IMG/VR virus record: IMGVR_UViG_3300031992_000041
Coordinates: 1-64,000 of that record
Strand: one strand, 5' to 3'
From: a virus
Lineage: Duplodnaviria > Heunggongvirae > Uroviricota > Caudoviricetes
DNA length: 64,000 nt
Shown one piece after another: positions 616 through 54,572 of the stretch (position 1 is its first letter; every line of letters begins with the position of its first letter). The position numbers and the translations under genes were made by a program. The notes beneath the pieces are model-generated. The model was not told where the DNA came from, did not search any database, and was given only the letters and a program-made list of their open reading frames with translations.

Positions 616-1842
616 TCAGTACTCCTTAATCAGTTTGTGCTTGTTCGCCTTCCAGTCCGGCTTCTCCGGGGTCTTCGCCTTGAAATTATAAATCGGCTTG
701 ATGATGTCCACGATGCGCACGGTGTCCTTGATGCTGTCGATGATTTCCTGCATGGGCTTGTAGGCCATGGGGCTCTCGTCGATGGTCTCGGGGCATACGC
801 TGGTGGAGTAGATGCCGCTCATCTGCTGCTCGAACTCCTGCATCGAGAGCGTGTCGAGAGCCTGCCTGCGCGACATCAGGCGGCCTGCGCCGTGGGGTGC
901 CGAGTAGAGCCAGTCGATGTTGCCGCGCCCCTCGCACAGCAGCGAGCCGTCGCGCATGTTCATCGGGATGATCAGCCGCTCGCCGTTGAGCGCCCTCACG
1001 GCTCCCTTGCGCAGGATGCGGTGCTTGATGTCGATGTAGTTGTGGATGGTGGTGAAGTTGGCGACGCTCATGTGCATCCATCCCATAGCGTGGCAGATGA
1101 TTCTCGACATGGTATAACGATTCGTATTGGCATACATCTGGCATAGTTGCATGTCGTAGAGATATTTTTCGGCATCCTCGCCCTCGATGAAGGCCAGTTC
1201 CTTGTCGATCTTCGGTGCCTGATCCTTGGCCTCGCGGATGGCGGCTGAAATCTCGCGCTGACGGCCCTCTGCCTTCAGGCGGGCGATGATGGCCTGCTCG
1301 TCGTAGCCCAGCCGACGGCAATAGTCCTCCGCCCGCTTCTGCCAGTATTCACAGACGCGCTTGCCGAGGTTGCGCGAGCCGGAGTGGATGACCAGGTACT
1401 TCTCGCCGTCGCTGCCCTCGTCCACCTCGATGAAGTGGTTGCCGCCGCCGAGCGAGCCGATGCTGCGCTGTGCTATGTCGCTGTCGATGGCCTCGCGGCA
1501 ATGCAGGCGGTCGATGAGCAGTGCCTCTTCCACAGGCTTCTCGTGGATATTGAAGCCGGACGGAATCTCGTTGTTCACCACGCGGTCGAGCCGTTGCAGG
1601 TCGATGTCGCCCTTGCCGAGGTGCACCACCTGCATGCCGCAGCCGATGTCAACGCCCACGGTGTTCGGTACGATGCGGTCTTTCAGCGCAATCACCGTGC
1701 CGATGGTACAGCCAGCCCCTGCGTGGCAGTCGGGCATGATGCGCACGGTGCAGTCCCCGTAGGCCCCGCTTGTTGCCATTCTCTCAATCTGTGCCTTTGC
1801 GGTGTCCTCCACCGTCCTGGCGAAAATCTTCAGTTGTTCCAT
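616..1842 (-). CDS. rtcB: RtcB-family RNA 3'-phosphate ligase
   Basis: 408 aa; RtcB signatures MPDCHAGAGCTIGTV (metal-binding Cys/His) and GGGNHFIE, SGSRNLG; length typical of RtcB. Confidence 0.9.
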   Translation of the reverse strand: MEQLKIFARTVEDTAKAQIERMATSGAYGDCTVRIMPDCHAGAGCTIGTVIALKDRIVPNTVGVDIGCGMQVVHLGKGDIDLQRLDRVVNNEIPSGFNIHEKPVEEALLIDRLHCREAIDSDIAQRSIGSLGGGNHFIEVDEGSDGEKYLVIHSGSRNLGKRVCEYWQKRAEDYCRRLGYDEQAIIARLKAEGRQREISAAIREAKDQAPKIDKELAFIEGEDAEKYLYDMQLCQMYANTNRYTMSRIICHAMGWMHMSVANFTTIHNYIDIKHRILRKGAVRALNGERLIIPMNMRDGSLLCEGRGNIDWLYSAPHGAGRLMSRRQALDTLSMQEFEQQMSGIYSTSVCPETIDESPMAYKPMQEIIDSIKDTVRIVDIIKPIYNFKAKTPEKPDWKANKHKLIKEY

Positions 1843-1869
1843 GTTGTTTTGCTTGTTTGATTTTCAATA

Positions 1870-2251
1870 CTATTTCATCAGTTCTGGATTATCGTGGATG
1901 TTGCCGATGACCTCGACGTCTCCGACCACTTCACTCAGATAGTTGCCGCTCTTGTCCAGGGTGCTCCTGACATCGAGCTACCGCTGTCAAAATGCACCAC
2001 ATACCCATTGTTGCTGAAATGGTAATGGAGTATGTCGCCACGTAGATCTCCTGTCCGTTCCTGTCTTTCAGTCCCGTGTACTGCCCCAGCGTATCGGGGT
2101 CAATCTCGTAGTCGTCCCACGACTTGCCGGTGGTAAACTCGTCGGGAACGATGAAGTGCGCCCCATGGTTCTGCAGATAGAATCCGTAGAGCCAGACGTT
2201 GTTCTTGCGGTTGAATCCGCGGAATTTGATTTCTCTCATAACTATCTTCAT
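1870..2251 (-). pseudogene. YopX-domain gene disrupted by two frameshifts
   Basis: N-terminal MREIKFRGFNRKNNVWLYG…GQYTGLKDRNGQEIY in one frame; the expected continuation GDILHYHFSNNGYVVHFDSG is in a second frame; the canonical C-terminus VIGNIHDNPELMK* is in a third (stop at 1870-1872). Confidence 0.6.
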
Positions 2252-2270
2252 AATTTGTGTGATCTGTGGT

Positions 2271-3128
2271 TTATTCTTGCTCGCTGTCGGCAGGTATCCC
2301 TTCCTTGTGCTTCGTGATGTCCTTCACGCGGTGCGGCTCGATGCCGTTCTTGCGCAGGTATTTGTAGACGGAGTTCGCCGACTTGATGCCCAGTTGCTTT
2401 TGTATCTCAGCGACGGTGGCTCCCTGGCGGTAGAGTTCCACTATCCGGTTTGCCGTCTCCTCGCTTATCGGTTCAGTGGAACGCCTGCCATTCTTCGTCG
2501 GCAATTCGCTGGCGGCCGGCAGCGGCTCGTCGTCGGGCGATACCGTCGGGTTCCGTTGCTGTCTTGTGACCATAGGTCTGGGGCGCTTTTCTTCTAAGTT
2601 CATACGACGCAAGATATTACCGTGAACGTCCTCGACGATGGCCGTCAGCGGGTCGCCATCTTTCACCTCCACCAGTTCCCACGACTTGTACTGCTTGCCG
2701 TTCTCGTCGATGAACGAATAAGCCACGGTGGTGGCCACCCCGTCGGCTTCGAGGAAGTTTCTTACCATATCGACCAAGCGGCGGAACAACTTTTCCTTTT
2801 CCTCGCACGTATCGGCGCAGTTTTGCAAATACATGCGTTCCAGAAACTCCGCATTGAACCTGATGATGTACTTTGGTTTTTCCTTCGGCTTGATGTACTC
2901 CGCGATAGCCTTTGCCACCTGCTCGGTCACATCCATCTTTTCAGGAAAGCCCGACTGTCTGCCGCCCTTATACGGGATGCTGGTGATGTAGATGCGACCA
3001 TTTTCAAAGCGAAGGCAGTTGTCGATTTCCACCATTCTCGATGTCGCACGGCCTGAATTTGTTGTACCGCCAATCGTGGTGGCGGTTCCGTTTGGATTGT
3101 CTTTGTCTGCCATATTACTTTCCTCCAT
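2271..3128 (-). CDS. DNA-binding protein with C-terminal Hin/resolvase-type HTH
   Basis: 285 aa; C-terminus IVELYRQGATVAEIQKQLGIKSANSVYKYLRKNG is an HTH_23-like helix-turn-helix; true start may be the internal MVEIDN. Confidence 0.55.
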   Translation of the reverse strand: MEESNMADKDNPNGTATTIGGTTNSGRATSRMVEIDNCLRFENGRIYITSIPYKGGRQSGFPEKMDVTEQVAKAIAEYIKPKEKPKYIIRFNAEFLERMYLQNCADTCEEKEKLFRRLVDMVRNFLEADGVATTVAYSFIDENGKQYKSWELVEVKDGDPLTAIVEDVHGNILRRMNLEEKRPRPMVTRQQRNPTVSPDDEPLPAASELPTKNGRRSTEPISEETANRIVELYRQGATVAEIQKQLGIKSANSVYKYLRKNGIEPHRVKDITKHKEGIPADSEQE

Positions 3129-3417
3129 CGTCTATAAAGTCGTTACACTTGCCTTGCAGTCCAAGGCGAACCTTGTCGCCAACCCGTCGTGCGCCGTGCT
3201 CGTCCAGTTCCACGTTGTCGCTGTCGCAGTAGAACATATACGGCCCGACGGTGTAGTCGTACCAAATGTCTGTGCAGTGCTCGCAGAAGAAGCAACTGCG
3301 GGGGTGAGCCATCAGCGAGTAGTATTCGCAGACGTACTTCCGTGTCCGTTCCTCGGGCTTCACCACCTCGTCCAGGCTGTCGAGTATCTGCAATGATGCG
3401 AATCCTTCCTTGCTCAT
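3115..3417 (-). CDS. hypothetical Cys-rich protein (100 aa)
   Basis: ORF track; CEYY…CFFCEHC…YCDSD pattern suggests a zinc-binding fold. Confidence 0.4.
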   Translation of the reverse strand: MSKEGFASLQILDSLDEVVKPEERTRKYVCEYYSLMAHPRSCFFCEHCTDIWYDYTVGPYMFYCDSDNVELDEHGARRVGDKVRLGLQGKCNDFIDDGGK

Positions 3418-3704
3418 AGTTCAAACGTCGTATGAAATTGTTTCTTGATAAACTCCCTCGGCAGCGCGTCGATGACGATGGCCGCAGTCTTGGTGCCAGG
3501 CGGCACTTGCGTTATAGGCTCCCAGCCGTGAAACCTCTCCCAGTTCGGGTCGGGTTCAAACTCCATGTCGAAGCTGATGTCCTCGGGCTGCATCCGTTCG
3601 CACAGCCGCAGTTTCTGATTCGTCCTGAACATGATGGGCGCATCCTCGGGCAGCATCTTGCACTGCTCGCTGTTCAGCAGGTCTATTAAGTCTTTCTTCG
3701 TCAT
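3414..3704 (-). CDS. hypothetical protein (96 aa)
   Basis: ORF track; ATGA-type overlap with the neighbouring ORF. Confidence 0.45.
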   Translation of the reverse strand: MTKKDLIDLLNSEQCKMLPEDAPIMFRTNQKLRLCERMQPEDISFDMEFEPDPNWERFHGWEPITQVPPGTKTAAIVIDALPREFIKKQFHTTFEL

Positions 3705-3716
3705 ATCACCTTGCTT

Positions 3717-3908
3717 TTAGTCCCACTCCTTCCAGTCGAAGTCTGCGAGGAAGCGGAAATTGTAGTCAATAATCTTCTTTGCCAGTTGCTCTACGGTCTC
3801 GGGCTTGTAGATTTCTGGAGCCTTGCTGATGGTGTGCTCCCGCATATCGTGAACCAGCTTGCGGACTATCAGGCCCTCTGTGTCCACCATGTCGAGCCGC
3901 CACGCCAT
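3717..3908 (-). CDS. hypothetical protein (63 aa)
   Basis: ORF track. Confidence 0.3.
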   Translation of the reverse strand: MAWRLDMVDTEGLIVRKLVHDMREHTISKAPEIYKPETVEQLAKKIIDYNFRFLADFDWKEWD

Positions 3909-3932
3909 CCTGGGCTGCCGGCTGGTGCAGTA

Positions 3933-4271
3933 TCACTCGCCCGCCCGGTCGCCGTGCGGTGACAGTCGGTGCACCACCTCGTCCATCGTGTACGGCTCCT
4001 TGTCGAAGTCGCGCTCTTCCTTCACGGGCGGTTCCGGCATCGGGATGTGCGGCGGTATAACCACCGACCCCATATACTCCTGCGCCTTGTCGATTTGCCA
4101 CTCTTCGATGCCGAGCGACTTCATCGCCTCTCGCATCCTCCACGTCAGATGTGCCGTCACGCGGCAGTAGAGCCATTCGTGTCGGCTTAGCCCCCACAGC
4201 GCACCGAATCCTGCGCCAAGTGTGAAGGCCAGTGTCATGCCGATAATCATCGGAATTGTGTAGTCTGTCAT
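3933..4271 (-). CDS. hypothetical membrane-anchored protein (112 aa)
   Basis: N-terminal TM helix IPMIIGMTLAFTLGAGFGALWGL. Confidence 0.4.
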   Translation of the reverse strand: MTDYTIPMIIGMTLAFTLGAGFGALWGLSRHEWLYCRVTAHLTWRMREAMKSLGIEEWQIDKAQEYMGSVVIPPHIPMPEPPVKEERDFDKEPYTMDEVVHRLSPHGDRAGE

Positions 4272-4277
4272 ATTGCA

Positions 4278-4748
4278 TTACTTTTTACATTTATACTTCG
4301 GATTGTCGCTTACGTCGGTGATGGTACCATCGGCATTGCGGATATGGTGGCCACGGGCGAGGGTGATTAATCGGTCGGTCGCATCCTTGATGTCCTCAGC
4401 CGACACAGCGCACGCCGCCACTGCATTGTTGAGCGGTTCCGGGTTCTTCATATACTCCTTCAGCAACTCCTGTGAAAGTCTGTCGAGCACCATCACGGCC
4501 TGCCGTTTCATCTGCACACCGAAAATCCTGTCCTTGACCCATCCGACGAGTCCGCGACGTGGCGACGGCATCATTTCCACTCTCGGCGCATGAACCATTA
4601 CAGGCTCTTCGTCCTTGTAGGTCAGCATACCCGACTCCATCTCACGCTTTGCAATCTCCATGATTCGCTGGCGTCCGCGCTGCTTCTCTTCCTCCGACAT
4701 TTCCCATATCCGATGGTCGCTCATTATCTCTCCGAGACTTTTCTTCAT
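4278..4748 (-). CDS. hypothetical protein (156 aa)
   Basis: ORF track. Confidence 0.5.
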   Translation of the reverse strand: MKKSLGEIMSDHRIWEMSEEEKQRGRQRIMEIAKREMESGMLTYKDEEPVMVHAPRVEMMPSPRRGLVGWVKDRIFGVQMKRQAVMVLDRLSQELLKEYMKNPEPLNNAVAACAVSAEDIKDATDRLITLARGHHIRNADGTITDVSDNPKYKCKK

Positions 4749-4751
4749 GGC

Positions 4752-5096
4752 TTAGCCCTCCTTTTTATTTTCTTGTTCCGTTCTCGGTACATACTGAGCG
4801 CAGCCGTCGCACATCTTCTGCGGGCTGATGTCACAGCCCCATCCTTCCGTATAGCGTACACACGGAGCCTTGTGCCCATAATTCTTTTTGACATTATTCT
4901 CCTCCTCGAACACACTCGACGGATTAGAAACATCGCCAGCCCACAGATAACTCTCAGCGCAGTCAGCAAGTTTTACTGCGTCGTCGAAAATCCTTTTCTC
5001 CTTCGTCACCAACCGTTTTTTCTCAAACTGGTCTTTGTACTGTCCTGTGCCTGCCAATTGCAGCATGGCTTGCAGGATAAAATCTCTCTTTGTCAT
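4752..5096 (-). CDS. hypothetical protein (114 aa)
   Basis: ORF track. Confidence 0.5.
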   Translation of the reverse strand: MTKRDFILQAMLQLAGTGQYKDQFEKKRLVTKEKRIFDDAVKLADCAESYLWAGDVSNPSSVFEEENNVKKNYGHKAPCVRYTEGWGCDISPQKMCDGCAQYVPRTEQENKKEG

Positions 5097-5222
5097 AATC
5101 TCAATCCGTTTTTGGTTTACGTGTGTAGAGTTGTTTCTTTTCTTTCGGCTTCCAGCGTCCGCTGCTGGGCATGGGCTTTGCGTCGGCCATTATCCGTTGC
5201 GATCACGGGGTCAGACCCTTGA

Positions 5223-5483
5223 TCACCGGTCGAACTGCCAGCCGCACAGCTCCTCGTAGTAAGCGTATGCCATTTCCCCGTCTGGATTGAGCACGGGGTA
5301 TGGGTGTCTGTTGCCGGGGTTTTCCGACTCCTTGTGCCAGATCTCCGCCATCAGCTGCTTGCGGGCGGCTTCCATCAACTTGGGAGCGTGCTTCCCGATG
5401 AAGTGCTCCACCTCCTTCTCGCTGTTAAACTCGTTCTGCGCATCCTGCAGGAACGAGAGCATTGCAGTCTCAAAATCTGTCAT
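5223..5483 (-). CDS. hypothetical protein (86 aa; start moved to internal MTDFETAM)
   Basis: upstream part of the track ORF overlaps the next gene; ATG (rc) at 5481-5483. Confidence 0.45.
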   Translation of the reverse strand: MTDFETAMLSFLQDAQNEFNSEKEVEHFIGKHAPKLMEAARKQLMAEIWHKESENPGNRHPYPVLNPDGEMAYAYYEELCGWQFDR

Positions 5484-5517
5484 AATCGTATTCCTTTTAA
5501 TTCGTTTAATTCGTGGT

Positions 5518-6219
5518 TCAGGATGGCATGGGGTCGGCATCGTGACGCGCTGCAAGTTTCTGCCTTGCGCTGTCGATGAACTTGATCATCGACTCGCCGT
5601 AGAAGTCACGCATACGATGTGTGGCTCCGTTGCCCTGCGACAACTCCAGCATGGCTTTCACGGCATCGAGACAGCCCACGGCCTGCTGATAGTTGGCATC
5701 ATTCTCTTTCTTCATGCGCTCCCTGTCTTTTGCCGCCTTTACTACTTCACCCATCAGTCTTTGAATGGTCTCATTCTGATTGCTGATGGTGTCAAGGGTG
5801 GCTTTCGTGTCGTTTGTCAGCCTTGTGGTGATGTCCTCGGCCACAGGCTCCGCAAGCACGTAGCGGTCGAAGCGGTCCTTGCGACGGACGAACACCTCCT
5901 TGTCGTCCAATTCGTGCTCAGGAGTATTGCTATCCGTCCGTTTGATGCAGGTGTCTAAACAGGAATAGCGGTCGTCCTCGGGGTCGAGACCCTGCAGCTC
6001 CTTGTAGATATTCACCTGCTGACGGCCACCTTCGTAGTTGAACTCCATCAGCCACCCGCGCAACAGCCCGCGAAGGCACGACTTGTGCGACTGAGGCATG
6101 TCCTCGCTGCTGGTAGTGTTGGCAAGCACGAGGTTCCAGTAATTTTCCTTCTCATTAATCTCTACTTCCCAGCCGAGTGCTCTCAGCACATCGGCTGCAA
6201 TCATGTAAATCAGTCTCAT
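5518..6219 (-). CDS. hypothetical protein (233 aa)
   Basis: ORF track. Confidence 0.5.
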   Translation of the reverse strand: MRLIYMIAADVLRALGWEVEINEKENYWNLVLANTTSSEDMPQSHKSCLRGLLRGWLMEFNYEGGRQQVNIYKELQGLDPEDDRYSCLDTCIKRTDSNTPEHELDDKEVFVRRKDRFDRYVLAEPVAEDITTRLTNDTKATLDTISNQNETIQRLMGEVVKAAKDRERMKKENDANYQQAVGCLDAVKAMLELSQGNGATHRMRDFYGESMIKFIDSARQKLAARHDADPMPS

Positions 6220-6239
6220 TGTTTCGTTGTTTTTATAAA

Positions 6240-6500
6240 TTAACCTTCTATTCCTCCGTCCACTATCTTGATGTCGAGCCTGCCAAGCGTGGTCAGCTGA
6301 AATCTCATGTGTTTCAGCATCTCTTCCTCACTCAGTCCTGCCTTGTCGAGAATCCATTTCGTCATAAACGGCCATGTGCTCGGAAAGCCCGTAAAGCCCT
6401 CGTAGATGTCGTACACTTCGACGGGTTCGTCAGTCGGTGGCGTGATTTGCGACACATTCAGCTGCCGCCTCACAATCTTAATCTTTGTCTTAATCGTCAT
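6240..6500 (-). CDS. hypothetical protein (86 aa)
   Basis: ORF track. Confidence 0.45.
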   Translation of the reverse strand: MTIKTKIKIVRRQLNVSQITPPTDEPVEVYDIYEGFTGFPSTWPFMTKWILDKAGLSEEEMLKHMRFQLTTLGRLDIKIVDGGIEG

Positions 6501-6570
6501 AATTTGTATTCCTTTTAATTCGTTTAATTCGTTTAATTCCTTTTTAATCCGTTGTTCCGAATAGTCCTCC

Positions 6571-6837
6571 CTAAAGCACTTCCGGCTCGTTGGCTATCCT
6601 TTCGGCTATCTCCCTTGCCTTGTCGTAGTCGCCGTCGGCCTCGCGCAGGGCCTTTGAGCATCCGCCGAGTCCTGCACCTGGCACTTCGCGCCACAGCCGC
6701 TTGACGGTTTCGAGCCGTTCGGGGTCTATCGGGTAGAGCTGCTTCTTTTTCAGTCCGTCGAAGAATCGCTTTGCATCGACGCTTACGGGCATCGGTCGCG
6801 GTTCCTCTGCAATCATTGCGTTTGTTACTTCGTCCAT
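6571..6837 (-). CDS. hypothetical protein (88 aa)
   Basis: ORF track. Confidence 0.45.
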   Translation of the reverse strand: MDEVTNAMIAEEPRPMPVSVDAKRFFDGLKKKQLYPIDPERLETVKRLWREVPGAGLGGCSKALREADGDYDKAREIAERIANEPEVL

Positions 6838-7041
6838 ATCGCCAAAAATTCTAATTGTTATTACTCAACGCCACCATCCTGCCGGTTCCACGTCTTCTAT
6901 TCTCCCGTTCTTGACAAAGTAGAGGTTTGCCGTAGCATTATGCAGCCGCACCCATCTCCTTTTGTCGCTCTCGTAAAACAACTTGTTCGCATCGTCTTTC
7001 GACATTGCCCTTAATTCCTCGTCGGTCATATCGCCTTTATT

Positions 7042-7509
7042 TTATTTCCTTTTTACGTTTAACAATTTTAGAATCTGCAGGCACTTGTCGTATGTAATGC
7101 CCTTATAGTTGTCGTCGAAGTCCACATGGAAACGGCGGCTTGGCTTTGCGAACTTGTTCCACTGCTTGACGATTTTGCGGATGTGATACACCTCGGTGCC
7201 GTAGCCTGGCAGGTGGATGAAGTCGCACGGCTTGCAACCGCGATACCACTCATGCTTGCTTTTGTACTCGATGCCCCAGCGGATATTGCCCTCGACCCAT
7301 GCGTAGATAATCTTCTTGATGTACTCCTTGCGCTTCCTGCCGCTGCTGCGCTCCCTCGCCCAACACTGGACGTAGGCGTTGGCGATGGTGTACCACATGC
7401 CGTATGACGTGCCGTAGTCGCCGTGGCGCATCTGGTCGTACATCCATTCGAGGTAGTAGTAGGTGTGCAACGGGCCTCGCCCGTGCCGTGTCATTCTGAC
7501 GTGCTTCAT
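7042..7509 (-). CDS. hypothetical protein (155 aa, Trp/Tyr-rich)
   Basis: ORF track; GGAGGACAAGC-ATG context. Confidence 0.5.
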   Translation of the reverse strand: MKHVRMTRHGRGPLHTYYYLEWMYDQMRHGDYGTSYGMWYTIANAYVQCWARERSSGRKRKEYIKKIIYAWVEGNIRWGIEYKSKHEWYRGCKPCDFIHLPGYGTEVYHIRKIVKQWNKFAKPSRRFHVDFDDNYKGITYDKCLQILKLLNVKRK

Positions 7510-7528
7510 TGCTTGTCCTCCTTATAAT

Positions 7529-7933
7529 TTATAGCCCAAAGTTCACTATCTCATTCCATCCGTAACCGCAATTAACATTAGGCACGGGGAATATGCATAG
7601 ATAGTCGTATTCCTCGAAGTCATCATAGCTGTCGGCCCATAGTTCACCGCCAGCCTTGGCTTTGTCGAACTCCTCCTTACTGGCGATACCGTGCTCTGGA
7701 TATACGCCGTACCTGTCTTCGATGATGTCAACAAGTTCTTCAGCCAATTCGCAGTCGAGCGTCTGCTTGCTGTCAATCCTGAACAGCCATTCGTATGACG
7801 GCGTGGCAATCATATAGATGCTGACAAGTTGCAATCCGTCGCCAAGTACCTTTTCCATGAGAATGGTCTCATCGTCCATCCTCTCGTTTATCCACTCTTG
7901 AAGCGTCTTCCCGTCTATTCGCTTTTCTTCCAT
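7529..7933 (-). CDS. hypothetical protein (134 aa)
   Basis: ORF track; GGAGGATTGACCTATG context. Confidence 0.5.
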   Translation of the reverse strand: MEEKRIDGKTLQEWINERMDDETILMEKVLGDGLQLVSIYMIATPSYEWLFRIDSKQTLDCELAEELVDIIEDRYGVYPEHGIASKEEFDKAKAGGELWADSYDDFEEYDYLCIFPVPNVNCGYGWNEIVNFGL

Positions 7934-7936
7934 AGG

Positions 7937-8311
7937 TCAATCCTCCTTCAATAGTTTATGTTCCAACCATGCCGCATAGAAATTGCAGTCATTCTGCAAC
8001 TTCACCGTGCCGTCCTTGAAGAAGGCTACGATTTCCTTTGCCGTAGCCGTGTCGGCATCCGTCCACTCGTCCACCTTCTGACGGTCGAGCGTCTTCTGCA
8101 ACTCACGGAAGCACTTGTGATAGGCTTGGCGGCGTATCTCAATCGCCTGCTTCTCGTAGTTGAAGTTGTGTTCGTCCATGTATGCCATCCTGTCGTAGCA
8201 TTCATCCTCTAAGCGGTCGAACGTGTCGAGCACCGCCTGTAATTGTTCCATTTCTGCTTGTTTCATAAATTCCTTTTTAATCCTTTTTAATCCGTTTAAT
8301 CCGTTGTTCAT
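7937..8311 (-). CDS. hypothetical protein (start at 8311 or 8266 uncertain)
   Basis: the N-terminus of the track ORF overlaps the upstream ORF; ATG at 8309-8311 forms an ATGA overlap with the upstream stop; alternative ATG at 8264-8266 has an AAGGA 5 nt upstream. Confidence 0.45.
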   Translation of the reverse strand: MNNGLNGLKRIKKEFMKQAEMEQLQAVLDTFDRLEDECYDRMAYMDEHNFNYEKQAIEIRRQAYHKCFRELQKTLDRQKVDEWTDADTATAKEIVAFFKDGTVKLQNDCNFYAAWLEHKLLKED

Positions 8312-9451: not shown

Positions 9452-9500
9452 TGTTTTTTGAATTTGGATTGTTAATACTATGCCTTGCGGCGTGAATTAT

Positions 9501-10292: not shown

Positions 10293-10320
10293 ATCGCCTT
10301 TAATTTATTTACCTTTTAAT

Positions 10321-10656: not shown

Positions 10657-10660
10657 ACGC

Positions 10661-46237: not shown

Positions 46238-46250
46238 AGTCGTAATCGCT

Positions 46251-46490: not shown

Positions 46491-46503
46491 AGTCGTAATT
46501 GTT

Positions 46504-47082: not shown

Positions 47083-47095
47083 AGCCGTAATCGTT

Positions 47096-47287
47096 TTAGA
47101 TTTCGTTTGAATTATAATACTCCTCGTTGGTCAGGAGCCACACCTTCAGACCAACAATCTTACCACCCTTCTTCACGAGCCTGGTTCTTGTATACTTCAG
47201 TCCCGTCTCGTCCTTCTTCTGCTGCACAATAGCCTTGTCCTCGCCTTTGCGGCACTGTTCTTCATTGAATTGTCCTACGTAAAACAT
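47096..47287 (-). CDS. hypothetical protein (63 aa)
   Basis: ORF track. Confidence 0.4.
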   Translation of the reverse strand: MFYVGQFNEEQCRKGEDKAIVQQKKDETGLKYTRTRLVKKGGKIVGLKVWLLTNEEYYNSNEI

Positions 47288-47335
47288 AATCTTTTCTCCT
47301 ATAGTTTTCAGTTTATTCTGAGTGAGGCGGCCATA

Positions 47336-48736
47336 TCATGCAGACGCCTTCGCTTTCTTCTTTGATGCCTTCGCATAGCCCGTATGCCTGAAGATGAAAC
47401 TCACGGCCTGCGCCGGGGTCACCGTGCGGCGGCCGTCGGCGTGCATCGTACTCATGCAGAGCCTTGCGTCGGGGTCGCTCACTGCGATACCCACCAGGGC
47501 ATGCAGCATCATCCACGAGAAGTCATCCACCGTCACCTCGTCGTAGAACTCGGTCTTGGTGAACACGTCCGTCACCTGTCCCAGCTGCTGCAGGATAGAT
47601 GCCTTGGTCAGCGTCGACATCTTGCGGTCATAGTCGCCGGCATTGATGCACACAGTACCGAAGCGCTCCTGCCACGGCGTCAACTCACGCGGCTGCAGCC
47701 ATGTATTGAACAGGTCGGTAGCCATCAGCACATCTTCTACCATGGGACCGTCCTCCCACGCCACGCTCGTCTCGCCATAGCGGTTGGTCTTGATACGGAA
47801 CGTCACGCCGGGGAAATTGGCCTTCAACACCTTCTTCATGTTGTCGACGGCCACCGTCTGGCGCTCACTCTGGCTCAGTCCGGCACTCATGGCAATCAAC
47901 TTCGGCGACCACTCGTCGATCAGCGGTTGCTGCTCTGCCAGCAACTTGACCTTCTTCTCCGCCTCGATGCGCGCCTTCTCCATCGCCTCGCGCTCCAGGT
48001 CGGCCTTGATGCGGTGCAGACGGTCGCTGTACATCGTCTCGTAGTTGCAGGGCACATAGTAGTCGGAGATAGTGCTGTCGCCCATCGGGTTGCCGAAGCA
48101 GCAGTAGTGCTCCGAGCGGAACATCACCACCTTGGCCACCCTCTGCCCCTTGCGGATGCCGTTGGCAGGGTCGGGCTTTTGCAGCACCTCCCATCCGCCG
48201 TAGATACAGCCAGTCTCAGCGCAGTTCATCAACTTGCTCAATGAGGCGTTGAACAGGTCGAAGTCCTTGCATTCAAAGACATGCTCGACCATCACCACGC
48301 ACTCCTGCTTCACGCCATTGGCGAGGACCACACGCAGCAGGTCGTCGGCAGTCAGATCGCTCCAGCCGAACATCGAGCGGGTGGACTCCACGCCCCTGGC
48401 GTAGATATAGTCGCCTGCCTTCAGGTCTCGGTGGCTCCTGCTGCGGTTCAGCCTTGCCTGCTCCACGGCCATCTCCACCTTGCGGCGCTCACGCTCCTTG
48501 CGTTCCTTCTCTTCGCGCTCCCTGGCCTCACGCTCGCGGCGCTCCCTACCCTTGCGGGCCTTCGTATAGTCGCCGTTCAACTCGGCCTTGCGTTCTTCGT
48601 ACTGGGCCTGCATCTCCTGAAACTCCGCCGTGGCGTCCGGATTGTCCGCGTTCCTGTCGGGGTGCATCTTTATCACGAGCCGCCTGTGCTCCTGCTCCAG
48701 TTGCTCGATGGTCATACAATTTTCAAAGTACATCAT
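47336..48736 (-). CDS. J-domain (DnaJ-like) protein
   Basis: N-terminal TIEQLEQEHRRLVIKMHPDRNADNPDATAEFQEMQAQYE with HPD tripeptide; remainder uncharacterised. Confidence 0.7.
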   Translation of the reverse strand: MMYFENCMTIEQLEQEHRRLVIKMHPDRNADNPDATAEFQEMQAQYEERKAELNGDYTKARKGRERREREAREREEKERKERERRKVEMAVEQARLNRSRSHRDLKAGDYIYARGVESTRSMFGWSDLTADDLLRVVLANGVKQECVVMVEHVFECKDFDLFNASLSKLMNCAETGCIYGGWEVLQKPDPANGIRKGQRVAKVVMFRSEHYCCFGNPMGDSTISDYYVPCNYETMYSDRLHRIKADLEREAMEKARIEAEKKVKLLAEQQPLIDEWSPKLIAMSAGLSQSERQTVAVDNMKKVLKANFPGVTFRIKTNRYGETSVAWEDGPMVEDVLMATDLFNTWLQPRELTPWQERFGTVCINAGDYDRKMSTLTKASILQQLGQVTDVFTKTEFYDEVTVDDFSWMMLHALVGIAVSDPDARLCMSTMHADGRRTVTPAQAVSFIFRHTGYAKASKKKAKASA

Positions 48737-48780
48737 AAACTGTTCACTTTTCGCTTTTCACTTTTCGCTTCTCACTTCTC

Positions 48781-49713
48781 TCACGCCGCCTGCTTCATCT
48801 GCGCCAGCAGCACGGCCCGCAGCCGCTCGGCCAGCGTCGGCTCGTGGTTAGCGGTGCATGGCTCTGGGTTCTTGACTCTCACCTCTTCCTTCTTCCCTGC
48901 CATCATCCACTTGGCCAGGTCGAAGCGGTCATAGTCCTTATCCTCAATCTTGCAGGTCATGTCGATATTGCCAAGCAGCGGCATCAGCAGCACCAGCGTC
49001 TCGTCGCCGGTGAACATCACCGCCCTGGTGCTCTCCACGAATCGCATACCCGTAGGCTGGAAGGCCATGACGTCGCGCAGCCTCTTGCAGTTGAACGAGG
49101 CGAACATCTTGTAGGGCATCCACCCCACCTCCACGTCGCGGCTCCACTCCTTGTCGGCGATGTCGTCGTAGTGGCTCAGCCGGATCGTCCTGCCGTCACG
49201 CTCGCCGTAGACACGCATCGGGCAGTTGACCGCCGACTTGTCGATTACAGCCTGCATATCCTTCAGCACGGCGTCCCACGCCTTGGCATCCACCGTAATC
49301 GGATAGCCTGATCTCCACGGCATCACGCTGCGCCATACCGGATAGCGTGCATCCAGTTTCATCTCGGCCGTCGCGCCCTGGCTGTCGGACACCCTCACGA
49401 ACTCGTCATAGGTGTCGCTGAGTATCTCCACCGTCACCACTCCTTTCATCTTCGTCACCTCGACGGGCATCATGTGGGCACCGTTCACCACAAACACGCC
49501 CTCGCCCATCTCGCAGCGGTAGTCCTGCAACTTATGCACCGCCAGGATGTGGCCGTCGGTGGCCATCATCAACCCCGAATCAGGCTCGATGGCCGGAAAC
49601 ATCCTAAACTGGCAGAGTCTGTCTTTCCTCTCCAGACACTTCCTCATGTTCTGCACCATCTTGTCGGCCACGAACGTCATTCGCGCCAACATCTTCAATT
49701 CATTCTTTGCCAT
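48781..49713 (-). CDS. hypothetical protein (start at MAKNELKML)
   Basis: ATG (rc) 49711-49713 preceded by CTAAAACATATACGACT. Confidence 0.5.
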   Translation of the reverse strand: MAKNELKMLARMTFVADKMVQNMRKCLERKDRLCQFRMFPAIEPDSGLMMATDGHILAVHKLQDYRCEMGEGVFVVNGAHMMPVEVTKMKGVVTVEILSDTYDEFVRVSDSQGATAEMKLDARYPVWRSVMPWRSGYPITVDAKAWDAVLKDMQAVIDKSAVNCPMRVYGERDGRTIRLSHYDDIADKEWSRDVEVGWMPYKMFASFNCKRLRDVMAFQPTGMRFVESTRAVMFTGDETLVLLMPLLGNIDMTCKIEDKDYDRFDLAKWMMAGKKEEVRVKNPEPCTANHEPTLAERLRAVLLAQMKQAA

Positions 49714-49726
49714 AGTCGTATATGTT

Positions 49727-49966
49727 TTAGGGTAAAATCTTTGCTTTCTTCGTATCATCCTCAGTAGCGAGGCGTATAGGGTCGGCGTCGTTGTGGACGG
49801 AAATCACCACGAGGTTGCCGAAGAGGTCATAGCACACGCGGCTCAGCGCATCACCGCCGAGCACGACTACCTTGCCGCGCTTGATGGCGCGGTCTATCTG
49901 CTTTCTTGTCATAAGCCAAAATATTTTATGTCCATCTGTTCTCCTCCAAAAGGACTGCCGCGTCAT
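49727..49966 (-). CDS. hypothetical small protein (79 aa; start at internal MTRQSFW)
   Basis: the start codon lies in the loop of a 13-bp hairpin; the upstream part of the track ORF looks intergenic and structured. Confidence 0.3.
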   Translation of the reverse strand: MTRQSFWRRTDGHKIFWLMTRKQIDRAIKRGKVVVLGGDALSRVCYDLFGNLVVISVHNDADPIRLATEDDTKKAKILP

Positions 49967-50094
49967 CCCGACGCAGCAGTCCGAATAATAACATCTCAAA
50001 AATTTACAAGTTATGAATTTGTAATTATCCATAGTTCCCGCAGTCGCATCAAAGCACAGGTCGTAGCCGCTGCGGGATAGTTGTTTCGTTGTTT

Positions 50095-50403
50095 CTAACG
50101 TTCGTCCAACAATTCCTTTACCGTCTCGTTCTCCGCATCCTCGTCGCTCAGCACGGCAGCACCCAGCCATCCGTATGCATCGTCGATGCCCATGATATAC
50201 GCCTTGCGCTCTGCCTCCGTGTCGAACTCCCGCACCGTCAACTGGCCCTCGTCGTAGTGCTCACGTATGCCATCCACGCCGTCGGTCATATACGCCTTGG
50301 CGGCATACTCACCGAAGATGACAGTCACTCTGTGCTTCTTGCGAGTGGCGGGAAGATCCGGGTTCTTGTTGTCAATAGGTGCTGCAATCTTTTCCATAGT
50401 CAT
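50095..50403 (-). CDS. hypothetical protein (102 aa)
   Basis: ORF track. Confidence 0.45.
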   Translation of the reverse strand: MTMEKIAAPIDNKNPDLPATRKKHRVTVIFGEYAAKAYMTDGVDGIREHYDEGQLTVREFDTEAERKAYIMGIDDAYGWLGAAVLSDEDAENETVKELLDER

Positions 50404-50415
50404 TTCTCGTTTTAG

Positions 50416-50763
50416 TCAATATTCCCTCACCACTCTCCTTACCTCGCCATAGACAGCCTGCAGGCCGTCAAGCGAGAGAAACATGTCACTTCTTGGCGGC
50501 ACATACTCGTCGCTGCCCATGCTGACGATGTAGTATGGCGTACTTCCATCACGTCCGGCGTATGCGATGCGGTCGCATACCACCGTCTCGCTCGTTCCGT
50601 CCGGCTTCGTCTGAAACAGGATGAGCATCCGCTTGAACAGTACGTCCTGCCCAGGCTCCGCCCCTATCTGCTTCAGCAGACCAATAGTCTCTGTCACCAG
50701 CACCTCGCGGCAGTTCGCCACCGCCGCACTCACATTCTTTCCGATAGTTGTCTTAATCTTCAT
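50416..50763 (-). CDS. hypothetical protein (115 aa)
   Basis: ORF track. Confidence 0.5.
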   Translation of the reverse strand: MKIKTTIGKNVSAAVANCREVLVTETIGLLKQIGAEPGQDVLFKRMLILFQTKPDGTSETVVCDRIAYAGRDGSTPYYIVSMGSDEYVPPRSDMFLSLDGLQAVYGEVRRVVREY

Positions 50764-50775
50764 AGTCGTTTCGTT

Positions 50776-51420
50776 TTATGGATTACCCGTCTCTCTCAGA
50801 AATGCGTCTTTCTCGCTGTCCATCAGTCCGAAGTAGAACTCCGTCATCAGATTCACCTGATCCGTACCGTTCAGGTGTCCCCATAGTTGGCGTATCTGCG
50901 CCATCCTGTCCTGCCCCTGCTGCAACTTCTTCGGGTTCTTTACCCTTGCCAGCACATGAGCCAGGCACTCATAGATGCTACCCTGCACCTCGTGCTCGAA
51001 GTCACCATCGACATAGCAGTCAGGATTGTCCCCGTCCATGTCGGTGCTGCCCACCGACCAATAGCCCTCGCCGTCATAGTCCACCACGATGCGCTTGCCG
51101 AAGGGCTGCAGCGTCTCGTTGGCCTCGCGCAGTGTCTCGTCGAAGTCGTGCTCAGTCACTTCCAGCAGGGTCAGCTCCGTAATGTGTGCCGTCTCTGCCT
51201 CGTCACTGCTCTCATACTCCGCCACATAGCCATCCTGCGTCAGCTGTCCGTCCTTGTCCTTGCGGATGTTCAGCTCGAAGTAGCCCTCCGTGTCGGCATG
51301 GTGTTCGTCCTCCACGAAGATGAGTGCCGTCTCTTCGTCGGGATAGTTGCGGTCCAGTTCCGTCCGCATCCCCTCAACAATCTGTCCGTCGAATGACGTG
51401 AATTTGAATCTAATAATCAT
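50776..51420 (-). CDS. hypothetical acidic protein (214 aa)
   Basis: ORF track. Confidence 0.5.
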   Translation of the reverse strand: MIIRFKFTSFDGQIVEGMRTELDRNYPDEETALIFVEDEHHADTEGYFELNIRKDKDGQLTQDGYVAEYESSDEAETAHITELTLLEVTEHDFDETLREANETLQPFGKRIVVDYDGEGYWSVGSTDMDGDNPDCYVDGDFEHEVQGSIYECLAHVLARVKNPKKLQQGQDRMAQIRQLWGHLNGTDQVNLMTEFYFGLMDSEKDAFLRETGNP

Positions 51421-51841: not shown

Positions 51842-52639
51842 TTAGTCCACAATCCCGCCGCCGTAGAACTTGTCGAAGTCAGACTTCAATCCCTTAGCGG
51901 TCTTCTTCCATTCCTCATAGCTTGCCTTCGCCTTGTCGTTGACGATTTCCCATTCAGAAGCCATCTGGCGGCGATAGTTGCGGTAGCCTGTATAGTTGTC
52001 CGTATAGTCACGGAACACATCATCAAGGGTCCCGCCCTCAATCGTGGTGTAGTTGCCGTGCTGGTCTTTCACCACCAGGCGAATACCCTCGCTGCTTGCC
52101 GTGAATGTCGATTTGTTGCCCCACAACTCCGCGTTGATAGCGGCATGCAGAGAGTCGCACATCCGGTATATCAGTCCACCGTCAGTCAGAATAGGGAAGT
52201 CAACATACTTCAGTTCCATCTTCCGCTGGACGTGGTACTCATGGTTCCAATTCGGTGAGCACGCATTGGAGAATGATATAAGATACAGCTGCCTATCGTC
52301 TTTGCCGATAGAGATAGCGTAGAAGTACCGCCATTCCCATTCTCCGTCGTAGTGTCCTAAGTGGTTTATCGCTTCTTCAGTCAAGTCTTTCTGCTCAAAC
52401 TGGATGATAGTGTGATAATATTTACCGCATGTTCCGCAAGTACCCTCGCTTGGTCTGTGTCCGTTGTCGCTTGGGTAGTCAAACTTTCGGTCAGGACCAT
52501 AGACATCATTCACAATCCTCTCGAACATCGCCCTGCTTTCCTTGTCCTCCGAGCGCAGAAACGATAGCGCCGAGGTCATTCTGATCTTCTCGTCGTTTGC
52601 GAGATAGTTCAAATAAATCTTCGTTTTCTCCATTGTCAT
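51842..52639 (-). CDS. hypothetical protein (start at MTMEKTKIY)
   Basis: ATG (rc) 52637-52639; the upstream part of the track ORF overlaps the next gene. Confidence 0.5.
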   Translation of the reverse strand: MTMEKTKIYLNYLANDEKIRMTSALSFLRSEDKESRAMFERIVNDVYGPDRKFDYPSDNGHRPSEGTCGTCGKYYHTIIQFEQKDLTEEAINHLGHYDGEWEWRYFYAISIGKDDRQLYLISFSNACSPNWNHEYHVQRKMELKYVDFPILTDGGLIYRMCDSLHAAINAELWGNKSTFTASSEGIRLVVKDQHGNYTTIEGGTLDDVFRDYTDNYTGYRNYRRQMASEWEIVNDKAKASYEEWKKTAKGLKSDFDKFYGGGIVD

Positions 52640-52646
52640 TACTATT

Positions 52647-53489
52647 TTAGTCGTTGATGTCTCTTTGCAGGCAGAGCACGTCGCCCGTCCAGACTTGGAA
52701 CAGGGTGTGCATGGCTGCCAGGTCGGCAGGCTCGTAGCCGTCGGGGATGACGCCAAACACGTCGCAGCCCTCGCAGTCGCCGATATGCTCGGCGTTATAT
52801 ACCACCACCGAGCCGTCCTCGTTAAGCGCAAAGGCGATATGCGCCTCCTGCATCCTCTCATAGAGTGCCTGCATCTCTTTGGCCAGTGCCTCCTGTGCAG
52901 GGGTAAGCCGTATCAGCAGGTCGATGTCCTGCCGACTGCTTGTCTGCTCAAAGTAATAGTCGCGTCCGAGGAACGTTCCACTCTTTCCGGCGGAAAGGTT
53001 CTTCGTGAGCAGATAGAATCTGGCACCGCACGTCGCCCCCTTTTTCGAGGCGGCACTCATATAGTCGTCCAGTTCCTTGCCGAGACGCTCACGCAGGGCT
53101 GTGTCGATAAGGCTATACGCCCCGCCCTGGAGCATGTGGCTCCCAACCACGAGGATAGGAGTCACCGTTCCGTCGGCCGCCCGCTCCATCAGCGTCCGAG
53201 GCTCATACTTACGGCCGTAGATATACATAAACAGTCGCTCGAATATCTCCTGCTGCATATCTGGTGCAAGGTCGTCAAAGTCCTTCTCTTCTTTATAGCC
53301 ACTGTAGTCCATGCCCACGGCTATCTCGCCGCCGCACGGATCCTGATAGAGATATTCGGCCTTGGCACAGGAACCCCTACGCTCCATCCAAATATCACAC
53401 TCTCTCTTATTTCCATCACTGGTATCCATGAGGATAGCCGACAGCGAACGACGAATGTCGTCACGCTTCAATTCTTTTAATACTTCCAT
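52647..53489 (-). CDS. hypothetical protein (280 aa)
   Basis: ORF track. Confidence 0.5.
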   Translation of the reverse strand: MEVLKELKRDDIRRSLSAILMDTSDGNKRECDIWMERRGSCAKAEYLYQDPCGGEIAVGMDYSGYKEEKDFDDLAPDMQQEIFERLFMYIYGRKYEPRTLMERAADGTVTPILVVGSHMLQGGAYSLIDTALRERLGKELDDYMSAASKKGATCGARFYLLTKNLSAGKSGTFLGRDYYFEQTSSRQDIDLLIRLTPAQEALAKEMQALYERMQEAHIAFALNEDGSVVVYNAEHIGDCEGCDVFGVIPDGYEPADLAAMHTLFQVWTGDVLCLQRDIND

Positions 53490-53516
53490 GTCTTAATCTC
53501 TTTAATCTGTGGTTTC

Positions 53517-54572
53517 TTACGCTGCCAGCGGCAGGGCCAGCGGGTGCATGGCCTTGGCCACAGCGTCGTACTTACGCAGGATATAGTTCGTCGCCTTCTG
53601 CACATGGTCGATGACGCTTGGGATAAAGTCCTTGTCGTCGCGCAGCGCCTGCCGCCAGTTCTGCACATAGGCGATGTGGTTCTCATCAAGTAACTTGCCG
53701 ATGCCCAGCATGGAGCATACGCAGGCAGCCGTCAACTCCGCCACGAACTCCTCCTTGGCATAACTCTCCGTGCCGAACGAGCCGCCCAGATCGCGCTTCA
53801 CGTCGGGAGCTGTAGAGTGCGCCATCTCATGTATGGCCGTGGCATAGAACTGATGGTCGCCCTTGAACTGGCTCCGATTGGGCAGATGCACACAGTCCTC
53901 CTTGGGGCTGTAGTAGCACTCATGGCCGCCGAACACCACCTTGCAGCGCCACTCGCCACCCTCGATCATCTTGTCGAGCACCTCGTCCACCGTGCCCTGC
54001 TCATAGTCGTGCGGCGGGATAGCCGTCAGTTTCTCCCACTTCTCGGGGAACTTCTCCCTGAAGTTGGTCTGGGATAGGTTGAACTCGGGGAAGGCCCGCA
54101 TAGAGAAGAACTTTCTGCACTCGGCCTTTTCCTCGTCCGATAGTTCGTCGTACTCCTTTGGCGTCAGTCGCTTGCCGTCCTTGTAGAAGTTAGGCAGCAT
54201 CTTCACCACGGGGAAACTGCTCTGGAACACGGGCAGGCCCTTGTCGTTGAACACAGGCATGCCGTCCTCGTCCGTCTTCATATTCAGGCTCAGTCCCATG
54301 TCCGTCAGTTGATCGAAGGTCAGGAAGTAAGGCGTCTCCCACCCCTTGATGCTGCACAATAGCGTCAGCAGGAAGTTGTTCATGCCCCGATAGGGCTTGC
54401 TCCTGCGCTGATAGTTGGCGGGCTCCCCGTGCGCCGGTGCCACCCACGGCTTATTATACTTTGCGCCCTCCATCTCATCAAGGGCGACGGTGAATAACTC
54501 GGCATACTTCGCCTTCTGTTTGTCGTTCATCTGGAACCCCTTACGGGCTCCGTTAGTCTTTGTCTGTTTCAT
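53517..54572 (-). CDS. ardC: ArdC-like antirestriction protein (ArdC_N/DUF1738 plus zincin HExxH domain)
   Basis: N-terminal YNKPW…PYRGMNNFLL…GWETPYFLTFDQ pattern of ArdC_N; C-terminal AIHEMAHST zinc-metallopeptidase motif. Confidence 0.75.
   Translation of the reverse strand: MKQTKTNGARKGFQMNDKQKAKYAELFTVALDEMEGAKYNKPWVAPAHGEPANYQRRSKPYRGMNNFLLTLLCSIKGWETPYFLTFDQLTDMGLSLNMKTDEDGMPVFNDKGLPVFQSSFPVVKMLPNFYKDGKRLTPKEYDELSDEEKAECRKFFSMRAFPEFNLSQTNFREKFPEKWEKLTAIPPHDYEQGTVDEVLDKMIEGGEWRCKVVFGGHECYYSPKEDCVHLPNRSQFKGDHQFYATAIHEMAHSTAPDVKRDLGGSFGTESYAKEEFVAELTAACVCSMLGIGKLLDENHIAYVQNWRQALRDDKDFIPSVIDHVQKATNYILRKYDAVAKAMHPLALPLAA

Follow-up and report, generated by a model that had tools for sequence, protein, structure and literature searches.

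Gene content of the window

The window analysed here is a stretch of 64,000 nucleotides, positions 1-64,000 of IMG/VR virus record IMGVR_UViG_3300031992_000041 (Caudoviricetes), and all coordinates are window positions unless another locus is named. Nearly all of it codes on the minus strand, in about 115 tightly packed open reading frames (ORFs) with a GC content of about 54%; ORF counts are approximate, and several gene models were taken from gene calls on near-identical contigs. An initial annotation, made from the sequence alone, had described positions 616-54572 as a dense counter-restriction island in a single transcriptional orientation, and named seven genes within it:

616-1842, minus strand: RtcB-family RNA ligase of 408 amino acids (aa) (PF01139, 2e-61; phrog_1075, 8e-132)
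16226-16717, minus strand: Dam/T1-type N6-adenine methyltransferase (MTase) (PF05869, 2.4e-16; phrog_111, 4.7e-43; TIGR01712, 3.6e-13)
18755-20542, minus strand: C5-cytosine MTase, 595 aa (PF00145, 2.2e-34 in two stretches; phrog_116, 8e-81)
20539-21549, minus strand: beta-class N4/N6 MTase with SPPY at aa 53 (PF01555, 8.9e-50; phrog_67, 8e-76; PADLOC MTase_II, 4e-95)
21543-22283, minus strand: DUF5131 protein, formerly Gp37/Gp68 (PF07505, 1.1e-93; TIGR04471-like)
41005-46008, minus strand: DarB-like MTase and superfamily 2 (SF2) helicase, 1667 aa (weak Eco57I-type MTase match in Pfam, then PF00176, SNF2, and PF00271, Helicase_C)
53517-54572, minus strand: ArdC-like protein, 351 aa, with an ArdC-N domain that binds single-stranded DNA (ssDNA) and a zincin metallopeptidase (PF08401, 6.1e-11; PF18818, 3.9e-30; phrog_7245, 3e-49)

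All seven lie on the minus strand, each with its lower coordinate exactly where it had first been placed; their family assignments hold and their catalytic motifs are intact. We consider it likely that, DUF5131 apart, they belong to a layered but dispersed counter-restriction kit, situated within what we take to be the early, replication and accessory arm of a tailed phage. The named genes are spread over 54 kb and interleaved with about 100 ORFs, and true clustering is confined to 16.2-22.3 kb, where the content of the cluster differs between relatives; the word 'dense' is therefore apt for that segment but not for the feature overall, in which seven genes stand among about 115 ORFs. The single orientation applies to almost all genes, but two are found on the plus strand, a helix-turn-helix (HTH) regulator at 33016-33720 and a conserved gene of 203 aa at about 63131-63742. 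Among the Pfam and PHROGs profiles that matched ORFs of the window, none is for a head, tail or packaging protein, in agreement with the earlier statement that structural genes are lacking.

The methyltransferase cluster

Searches with Pfam and PADLOC found no restriction endonuclease or defence partner beside any MTase or the DUF5131 gene, and the three MTases are therefore regarded as orphan enzymes. The Dam-type protein, which PADLOC also classes as an orphan MTase, carries NPPY at aa 68 and is present in just one family relative. The C5-MTase has the core motifs FCGAGG, a catalytic Cys95 in LECTNFS and ENV at 133, and in its motif IV Glu-Cys (ECT) replaces Pro-Cys (PCQ). This enzyme had been called 'multi-module', and seven tandem units resembling target recognition domains can indeed be read directly in its sequence; they occupy aa 298-500 (about 200 aa) between the N- and C-terminal core motifs, each unit being about 30-36 aa long with the pattern I-D-x-P-x-x-T-[VLI] (consensus IDxPxPTV..V.A.FL). 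As in the analogous SPR and phi3T enzymes, multispecificity is probable, and the enzyme is present in four relatives at 62-69% identity. The SPPY enzyme, whose product is probably N4-methylcytosine or N6-methyladenine (m6A), is encoded by a gene that overlaps each neighbour by 4-7 nt; distant homologues (25-28% identity) occur elsewhere in some relatives, none of them beside the primase or the C5-MTase. Judged by its presence pattern across relatives, the MTase block is accessory.

The DUF5131 gene is translationally coupled to the two MTases in the window, and relatives yielded a single match of 26% identity, with no counterpart beside the primase or the C5-MTase. Its inclusion among the anti-restriction factors is unfounded: no such role is known for it, and an MTase homologue lies within 1.5 kb in 14 of 79 viral loci (by single-sequence phmmer, an insensitive search), which is too weak an adjacency to carry the assignment. 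The family is listed in the literature as a radical SAM subgroup only.

DUF5131 also matches the PADLOC candidate-defence components PDC-M30B and PDC-M41B, at 3e-94, and this introduces a different explanation, in which the phage carries the MTases, DUF5131 and the MTase-helicase for defence or exclusion, as modules like restriction-modification (R-M) or like BREX/DISARM that would protect a lysogen from other phages and would not serve the phage's own counter-restriction. The C5-MTase resembles DrmMII and DruM, the helicase C-terminus resembles DrmD, and a carried state is plausible, since the element has a regulator of repressor type and a maintenance module of plasmid type (see below). However, the DrmD and Brx matches are to the generic helicase C-terminal domain only and fall far under cut-offs, no nuclease or other effector adjoins any of these genes in Pfam or PADLOC searches, and the 1667-aa protein aligns over most of its length with DarB-like antirestriction proteins. 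We regard a defence role as quite improbable, and retain counter-restriction as the preferred reading of the MTases and the MTase-helicase.

Two more genes lie within the cluster, of which the SPFH/Band-7 gene is unrelated to restriction:

16717-17034, minus strand: small transmembrane protein, after the SPFH gene
17039-17887, minus strand: SPFH/Band-7 membrane protein (PF01145, 8.5e-17; phrog_200, 1.6e-64)

The DarB-like, ArdC-like and RtcB proteins

The 1667-aa protein retains intact LDPASGMGVF, NVPF, GAGKT and DESH motifs. It aligns with P1 DarB in three collinear segments, corresponding to the MTase, the helicase core and the helicase C-terminal region (E-values of 4e-13, 3e-10 and 7e-10), the MTase segment matching P1 DarB aa 87-274 at 26% identity; phage proteins entered in RefSeq as 'DarB-like antirestriction' are 26-30% identical to it over 80-92% of its length. 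On this sequence evidence the label 'DarB-like' is justified as one of architectural homology. The gene is kept in all four relatives examined and is a core gene of the family, while the nearest annotated homologues of its product are found on Bacteroidales plasmids, including two Prevotella plasmids, at 43-50% identity over 95-99% of the length. A near-identical protein of 1652 aa carries precomputed Pfam assignments to PF28553 (WH_1), PF28554 (DUF8437), PF28555 (Helicase_dom) and PF28556 (DUF8438), which suggests that Pfam has only lately taken up this family of MTase-helicases.

The ArdC-like protein matches PF08401 above the gathering score, has HEMAH (HExxH) at aa 248, and belongs to phrog_7245, which is annotated 'anti-restriction protein'. 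Its nearest homologues are encoded by Bacteroides, Phocaeicola and Parabacteroides plasmids (33-35% identity over about 91%), and its matches comprise 3039 plasmid records against 57 phage records. The gene is kept in those relatives whose fetched loci extend to it. The pairing of ArdC-N with a zincin is the commonest domain pair in the 'polyvalent' entry proteins (PMC5512222). For a 280-aa ORF beside the ArdC-like gene, a search of 5.8 billion proteins returned two homologue clusters, from which no alignment could be built.

The RtcB-family protein, at the opposite end of the feature, conserves the metal ligands (Asp/Cys/His) and the His nucleophile of P. horikoshii RtcB (PDB 4dwr, 1uc2), with which it aligns at the stretches GVDIGCG, GGGNHF, HSGSRNLG and PHGAGR, and scores under the NCBIfam equivalog cut-offs. 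A tRNA scan of the window found none, so that RtcB occurs there without accompanying phage tRNAs; an Rfam scan of the window likewise gave no match.

Genome context and relatives

Context was obtained by exact-protein look-ups, which led to metagenome contigs 99.7-100% identical to the window. An ENA contig of 99 kb, 99.99% identical, reaches about 71 kb past the right end, and a JGI contig reaches 10 kb past the left end. Near-identical contigs occur in the samples ENA ERZ27257202, JGI 3300028833 and SRR9006729/30. Directly to the right, in the same orientation, are genes for a DnaA_N/AAA+ (DnaC-like) loader, a Rep_3-type initiator (Rep3_C, 4e-7; Rep3_N, 2.7e-3) and ParA (CbiA/AAA_31; the copy in a relative matches phrog_164 at 1.7e-50). 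The Rep/Par module lies about 8 kb past the right end, and beyond it, in the same genome, is a divergently transcribed block encoding an endolysin with Amidase_2 and PG_binding_1 domains (module and block together: L007 3523-8560 and 515-1249, on the extended locus). Three phage hallmark proteins are encoded by the corresponding divergent block of a syntenic relative, namely an endolysin (phrog_822, 1e-61), the large subunit of a terminase (3e-28 against an annotated TerL) and a portal protein (2e-15). On the left, the same-strand array of small ORFs persists for at least 10 kb beyond the window. The non-structural arm is thus at least 75 kb long and runs past both ends of 616-54572. Pfam searches of the window and of the flanking sequence that was examined, which together represent part of the genome only, gave no integrase.

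The array on the left includes a Tad2-like (anti-Thoeris) gene about 3 kb from the window start (L005 13706-14047, locus coordinates). A second Tad2-like gene was seen in the late arm of a relative (L027 14631-15074, locus coordinates; PF11195, 3.5e-18).

The family to which the element belongs was delimited chiefly through the 1158-aa primase encoded at 28678-32154. Relatives of this protein, 64-79% identical, occur on 16 IMG/VR viral loci, several of them contigs of 128-145 kb, and in five loci from metagenome-assembled genomes (MAGs), where contigs of 110-113 kb are binned with rumen Bacteroidaceae/Prevotella MAGs. A tblastn search matched the primase to the primase/TOPRIM protein of a Polaribacter phage; against PLSDB plasmids it found no match. 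Megablast of 40-60 kb against PLSDB and a phage collection also gave no match, hence there is no cultured or deposited near-relative. These relatives and the neighbouring phage genes indicate, in our judgement with good probability, that the element is a tailed phage, uncultured and about 130-145 kb in size, and that the larger part of its non-structural arm lies in the window. Its probable host is a Prevotella of the rumen or some other member of the Bacteroidaceae, because relatives are binned with MAGs of these groups and because the nearest homologues of the ArdC-like, DarB-like and Rep proteins are on Bacteroidales or Prevotella plasmids.

That last observation requires us to consider whether the element has been wrongly classed as viral, and comes instead from a conjugative or mobilisable plasmid of Bacteroidales, as its leading region; the initial annotation had itself remarked on a likeness to conjugative leading regions. 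At the level of single genes the plasmid affinity is real. The best annotated matches of the DarB-like, ArdC-like and Rep proteins are on Bacteroidales plasmids, those nearest to Rep being Prevotella and Bacteroides plasmid initiators; Rep_3 and ParA genes flank the window; and one Bacteroides fragilis plasmid encodes ParA, an ArdC-like protein, DUF1896 and an MTase-helicase in the same order and orientation. Yet that plasmid (NZ_CP043609) shares just two proteins with the window, whose primase and 20-kb stretch at 40-60 kb, as noted, match nothing in PLSDB. The endolysin in the same genome, the terminase and portal genes at the syntenic position in relatives, and the 16 relatives catalogued in IMG/VR all indicate a phage, and YopX, DUF5131 and RtcB are typical of phages. 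No relaxase or type IV secretion system (T4SS) profile from Pfam was matched among the scanned window ORFs, no relaxase appeared among the scanned flank proteins or the Pfam calls precomputed for the flanks, and SSB, PsiB and UmuCD had no Pfam or PHROG match in the window. The likeness to a leading region does not hold, and we judge it highly improbable that the element is a plasmid of this kind.

Interleaved and variable genes

Genes for replication, regulation and related functions are found between the counter-restriction genes and to their right:

27540-28235, minus strand: DEDD 3'-5' exonuclease, Rv2179c-like (PF16473, 6.9e-16)
28678-32154, minus strand: primase-type replication protein, 1158 aa, with a DnaG Zn-ribbon (Zn_ribbon_DnaG) and a Walker A motif; a family core gene
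32157-32444, minus strand: Cro-like HTH protein (HTH_31/HTH_3)
33016-33720, plus strand: HTH and coiled-coil regulator, 234 aa (HTH_3, 2.2e-9)
45986-46237, minus strand: HTH protein, 83 aa; its gene overlaps the beginning of the DarB-like gene (HTH_3; phrog_2439)
47336-48736, minus strand: J-domain and LPD29 protein, 466 aa (PF00226, PF18847)
48781-49758, minus strand: sliding-clamp-like protein (phrog_947, 'DNA polymerase processivity factor', 6.7e-8)
60787-61236, minus strand: HU-type DNA-binding protein, conserved in relatives (PF00216, 2.3e-8)

HTH proteins number four in all within the window. The J-domain/LPD29 and clamp-like genes are kept wherever the fetched loci of relatives extend that far, and LPD29 is a domain associated with polyvalent proteins (PMC5512222). 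At 32157-33720 the plus-strand 234-aa regulator faces the Cro-like HTH gene, a 179-aa ORF and the primase gene, forming a divergent node; this divergent HTH pair resembles a lysogeny or immunity switch placed in the middle of the arm. A scan for sigma-70 promoters and terminators gave results barely above shuffled expectation, and that consensus is not meaningful for Bacteroidota; the Bacteroidota -7 motif TAnnTTTG showed no enrichment upstream of window genes. Neither scan delimited transcription units.

Conservation was assessed for 48 ORFs at 18.7-56 kb against those four relatives whose primase and DarB-like loci had both been fetched. Only four of the 48, the primase and DarB-like genes among them, occur in every one of these relatives, and 26 are absent from all of them. 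The small ORFs that the initial annotation saw interleaved among the named genes do turn over rapidly, and for the anti-defence function proposed there they are candidates only. Profile searches of the ORFs with Pfam and PHROGs assigned no structural roles and left about three quarters unmatched; on the other hand, replication and regulatory roles were found, and among the unassigned ORFs there was no match to an anti-defence profile apart from a Lar-like protein that falls below threshold. This protein is part of a patch of distinct composition:

22300-26200, minus strand: low-GC insertion of about 12 ORFs (GC 0.31-0.45, against about 0.55-0.6 on both sides)
25105-25413, minus strand: Lar-like Zn-ribbon, sub-threshold (PF14354, 23.9 bits against a cut-off of 28.6; phrog_599, 8e-4)

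The ORFs of the patch are missing from relatives, and the patch adjoins the variable MTase/DUF5131 cluster; its appearance is that of foreign DNA recently inserted at a hotspot of gene gain. It also encodes a 402-aa protein with internal 'EWS(E/K)ED' repeats. Flanking direct repeats were considered and discarded, a 25-nt 'repeat' being simply two similar regions of ribosome-binding site and start codon.

Two sequence motifs recur at the junctions between ORFs, at 36392-51000 (minus strand) and 610-14815. The first, AAAAC-N3-TACGACT-ATG, contains the TAA stop of the upstream gene and has 21 matches on the coding strand of the window against 1.1 expected; in loci of the family there are 27 coding-strand copies in 557 kb, compared with one in 1.08 Mb of unrelated viral loci. 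The second, TAAGGAGGACTGA-N3-ATG, has nine coding-strand matches against 0.45 expected, and translation of the Shine-Dalgarno sequence gives the ORFs upstream of it a K-E-D-stop ending. Strong Shine-Dalgarno sequences are unusual for Bacteroidota. These motifs could be signals for translational coupling, or recombination linkers for the exchange of cassettes.

Six small proteins are strongly acidic (7529-7933, 34071-34571, 40004-40585, 40620-40952, 46504-47082 and 50776-51420), with isoelectric points of 4.1-4.5 and net charges of -15 to -30. None of the six is found in relatives, and three adjoin the DarB-like gene. They are possible DNA mimics.

These observations bear on whether the feature is, as first proposed, a dedicated and bounded anti-defence island, in which most genes of 616-54572, small ORFs included, serve counter-defence. 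Seven to nine recognisable genes have counter-defence or related roles, a Tad2-like gene is placed just outside the window, and the turnover of small ORFs, the acidic proteins and the small HTH proteins beside the DarB-like gene would all be in keeping with such an island. But a bounded island is not what the arm displays, because the array runs past both ends, at least 10 kb to the left and on the right up to the Rep/Par module, and because core genes of replication and regulation (primase, clamp-like protein, exonuclease, HU and HTH regulators) are interleaved. The recognisable genes are seven of about 115 ORFs, and none of the ORFs lacking assignment carries an anti-defence profile in Pfam or PHROGs other than the sub-threshold Lar. 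We consider a dedicated island unlikely, and prefer to see the counter-restriction genes as dispersed along a phage arm that has other business as well.

Other features of the window

The genes on the left of the window, and other ORFs and repeats, are as follows:

1931-2251, 8574-9053, 10661-11308, 11101-11565 and 15777-16214, minus strand: five YopX paralogues (PF09643, 5.5e-50 in four stretches; fifth copy, 3.3e-13)
3933-4271, minus strand: ORF, from a gene call on a near-identical contig
9501-10292, minus strand: radical SAM protein, 263 aa, with CxxxCxxC (PF04055, 1.5e-6) and a weak SPASM-like C-terminus (PF13186, 6.6e-3)
51842-52633 and 52647-53489, minus strand: ORF pair, from gene calls on near-identical contigs
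59451-59807: tandem repeat of 145 bp, 2.5 copies, 94% identical (TRF score 658)

YopX has evidently been amplified, with five copies within 15 kb (1931-16214). All NCBIfam and PADLOC matches of the radical SAM protein are far under cut-offs. The tandem repeat sits in an ORF-poor stretch of 1.2 kb (58995-60170), followed by two sites of hairpin and T-run on the minus strand, and each 145-bp unit contains the perfect palindrome AACCTGCGCAGGTT. The repeat is not conserved in relatives and has no Rfam match. A non-coding RNA was considered and rejected, there being no stable fold on either strand (z-scores of +1.4 and +1.2) and no copy in relatives; the repeat may instead be an array bound by protein at the DNA level, for example a centromere or an operator.

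Discussion

The counter-restriction content that was initially proposed for this region is real, and some of it had been missed, namely the weak Lar-like gene and, beyond the left end, the Tad2-like gene, though there are no good grounds for placing DUF5131 in it. In proposing how these genes might work together we envisage an arm that starts at the Rep_3/DnaC-like/ParA module to the right of the window and runs leftward, and, diverging from it, a second arm with the genes for lysis, terminase and portal. The three orphan MTases (Dam-type m6A, multi-unit C5 and SPPY) would methylate progeny DNA in advance, as a shield against type II and other R-M systems, which is an established role of phage orphan MTases. 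By analogy with P1 DarB and plasmid ArdC, the DarB-like and ArdC-like proteins would protect the incoming genome, or help to establish it, at or soon after entry; such entry roles have been discussed for polyvalent proteins (PMC5512222). RtcB could reseal RNA that has been cut by metal-independent ribonucleases, such as anticodon nucleases, leaving 2',3'-cyclic phosphate and 5'-OH ends, and resealing of RNA by RtcB has been proposed for jumbo phages (PMC7824862). Finally, some of the small ORFs that turn over quickly between backbone genes may be anti-defence genes.

Several considerations weigh against this account. In temperate phages, MTases can have other duties, in packaging, in regulation or post-segregationally, and ArdC has been characterised for ssDNA that enters by conjugation, while tailed phages inject double-stranded DNA (dsDNA). 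The PADLOC matches of DUF5131 point to candidate defence systems and not to anti-defence. In a tblastn comparison of all window ORFs with P1 positions 1-50000, a segment that includes every one of the packaging-helper genes (DarA, Hdf, Ulx, DdrA and DdrB), the sole match was DarB and none of the helpers had a homologue; delivery of the DarB-like protein in the virion is consequently unsupported. The label 'early' is an assumption from position and orientation. The host call relies on MAG binning and the taxonomy of homologues, not on spacers or culture. The large share of ORFs that match no profile is a further point against it, and as for the acidic proteins, single-sequence AlphaFold2 of two of them gave mean predicted local distance difference test (pLDDT) values of 54.8 and 33.6, so that the models were unusable. 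In spite of these points, a dispersed kit within a phage arm is the reading that we still think probable.

The genome combines phage and plasmid traits, namely the endolysin on the 99.99%-identical contig and the terminase and portal genes at the syntenic position in a relative, along with Rep_3 and ParA. Because the Rep_3/ParA module stands beside the endolysin block, and because Rep, the ArdC-like and the DarB-like proteins have plasmid affinities, we raise a broader idea, tentatively and with more doubt than conviction. The element may represent an undescribed lineage of phage-plasmids in Bacteroidota (rumen Prevotella/Bacteroidaceae), in which the arm is a cassette array whose hypervariable small ORFs are exchanged via the junction motifs, and in which the ArdC-like and DarB-like genes are held in common with conjugative plasmids of Bacteroidales or were acquired from them; the arm would then be a fast-evolving store of anti-defence genes bridging phage and plasmid gene pools. 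A shallow search of the literature found no described phage-plasmids of Bacteroidota.

Bacteroidota of the rumen and gut are rich in R-M and other defence systems, and the counter-strategies of their large phages are little known. The recognisable genes described here are all of known kinds, and are new members in an uncultured phage lineage; they are useful as an inventory and as leads for further work, and do not amount to a new mechanism. What the window yields is a gene set that can be tested, consisting of three orphan MTases, a DarB-like/ArdC-like pair, RtcB and dozens of lineage-specific small ORFs. If Rep and ParA do signify plasmid carriage, phage-plasmids would be extended to Bacteroidota, and functions of entry protection would be seen to flow between conjugative plasmids and phages.

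Comparison with known systems

The organisation of the window has similarities with the anti-defence islands of conjugative leading regions, the defining features of which we take from Samuel et al. 2024 (PMC11541004). Both have uniform gene orientation, and both have MTases and darB-type genes among many small ORFs of no assigned function. However, the window is without the oriT/relaxase, SSB, PsiB and UmuCD boundary genes of those islands, phage hallmark genes are present on the same replicon, and the array, which includes replication genes, exceeds those islands severalfold in length.

Closer analogues exist for single genes. The C5-MTase is comparable to the multispecific enzymes of the Bacillus phages SPR, phi3T and SPbeta, being a phage orphan whose variable region is expanded into tandem modules; it differs in having ECT and not PCQ, and the likeness noted here is one of architecture. 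With P1 DarB the 1667-aa protein shares an N-terminal gamma-class N6-adenine MTase (motif I and NVPF) followed by an SF2 DExH helicase and a C-terminal domain, although it is 21-26% identical and about 600 aa shorter, and its gene is in the non-structural arm whereas P1 darB adjoins the portal gene. The ArdC-like protein has the ArdC-N ssDNA-binding domain and the C-terminal zincin with HExxH that are seen in ArdC of the IncW plasmids pSa and R388, a relation that (for pSa) was judged through Pfam profiles only. Its gene, unlike theirs, is carried by a tailed phage and not a conjugative plasmid, with no T4SS route and no ssDNA entry intermediate.

Among Bacteroidales plasmids, B. fragilis NZ_CP043609 encodes ParA, ArdC-like, DUF4116, DUF1896 and MTase-helicase proteins in this order, and the ArdC-like and MTase-helicase genes keep their order and orientation here, downstream of ParA; the distance from the ArdC-like gene to the MTase-helicase is 2 kb on the plasmid, but 7.5 kb in the window, with more than 12 unrelated ORFs between. 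The Prevotella sp. E2-28 plasmid NZ_CP091789 provides some of the closest annotated homologues of these proteins. To our knowledge, the MTase-helicase and ArdC-like proteins of plasmids are functionally uncharacterised as well.

As a whole, the element may be compared with the phage-plasmids P1, N15 and SSU5. It has no sequence relation to the known phage-plasmid groups, its host phylum is Bacteroidota, and it is read here from metagenomic contigs; what it shares with them is a tailed-phage genome furnished with a plasmid-type initiator, ParA and a repressor-like regulator.

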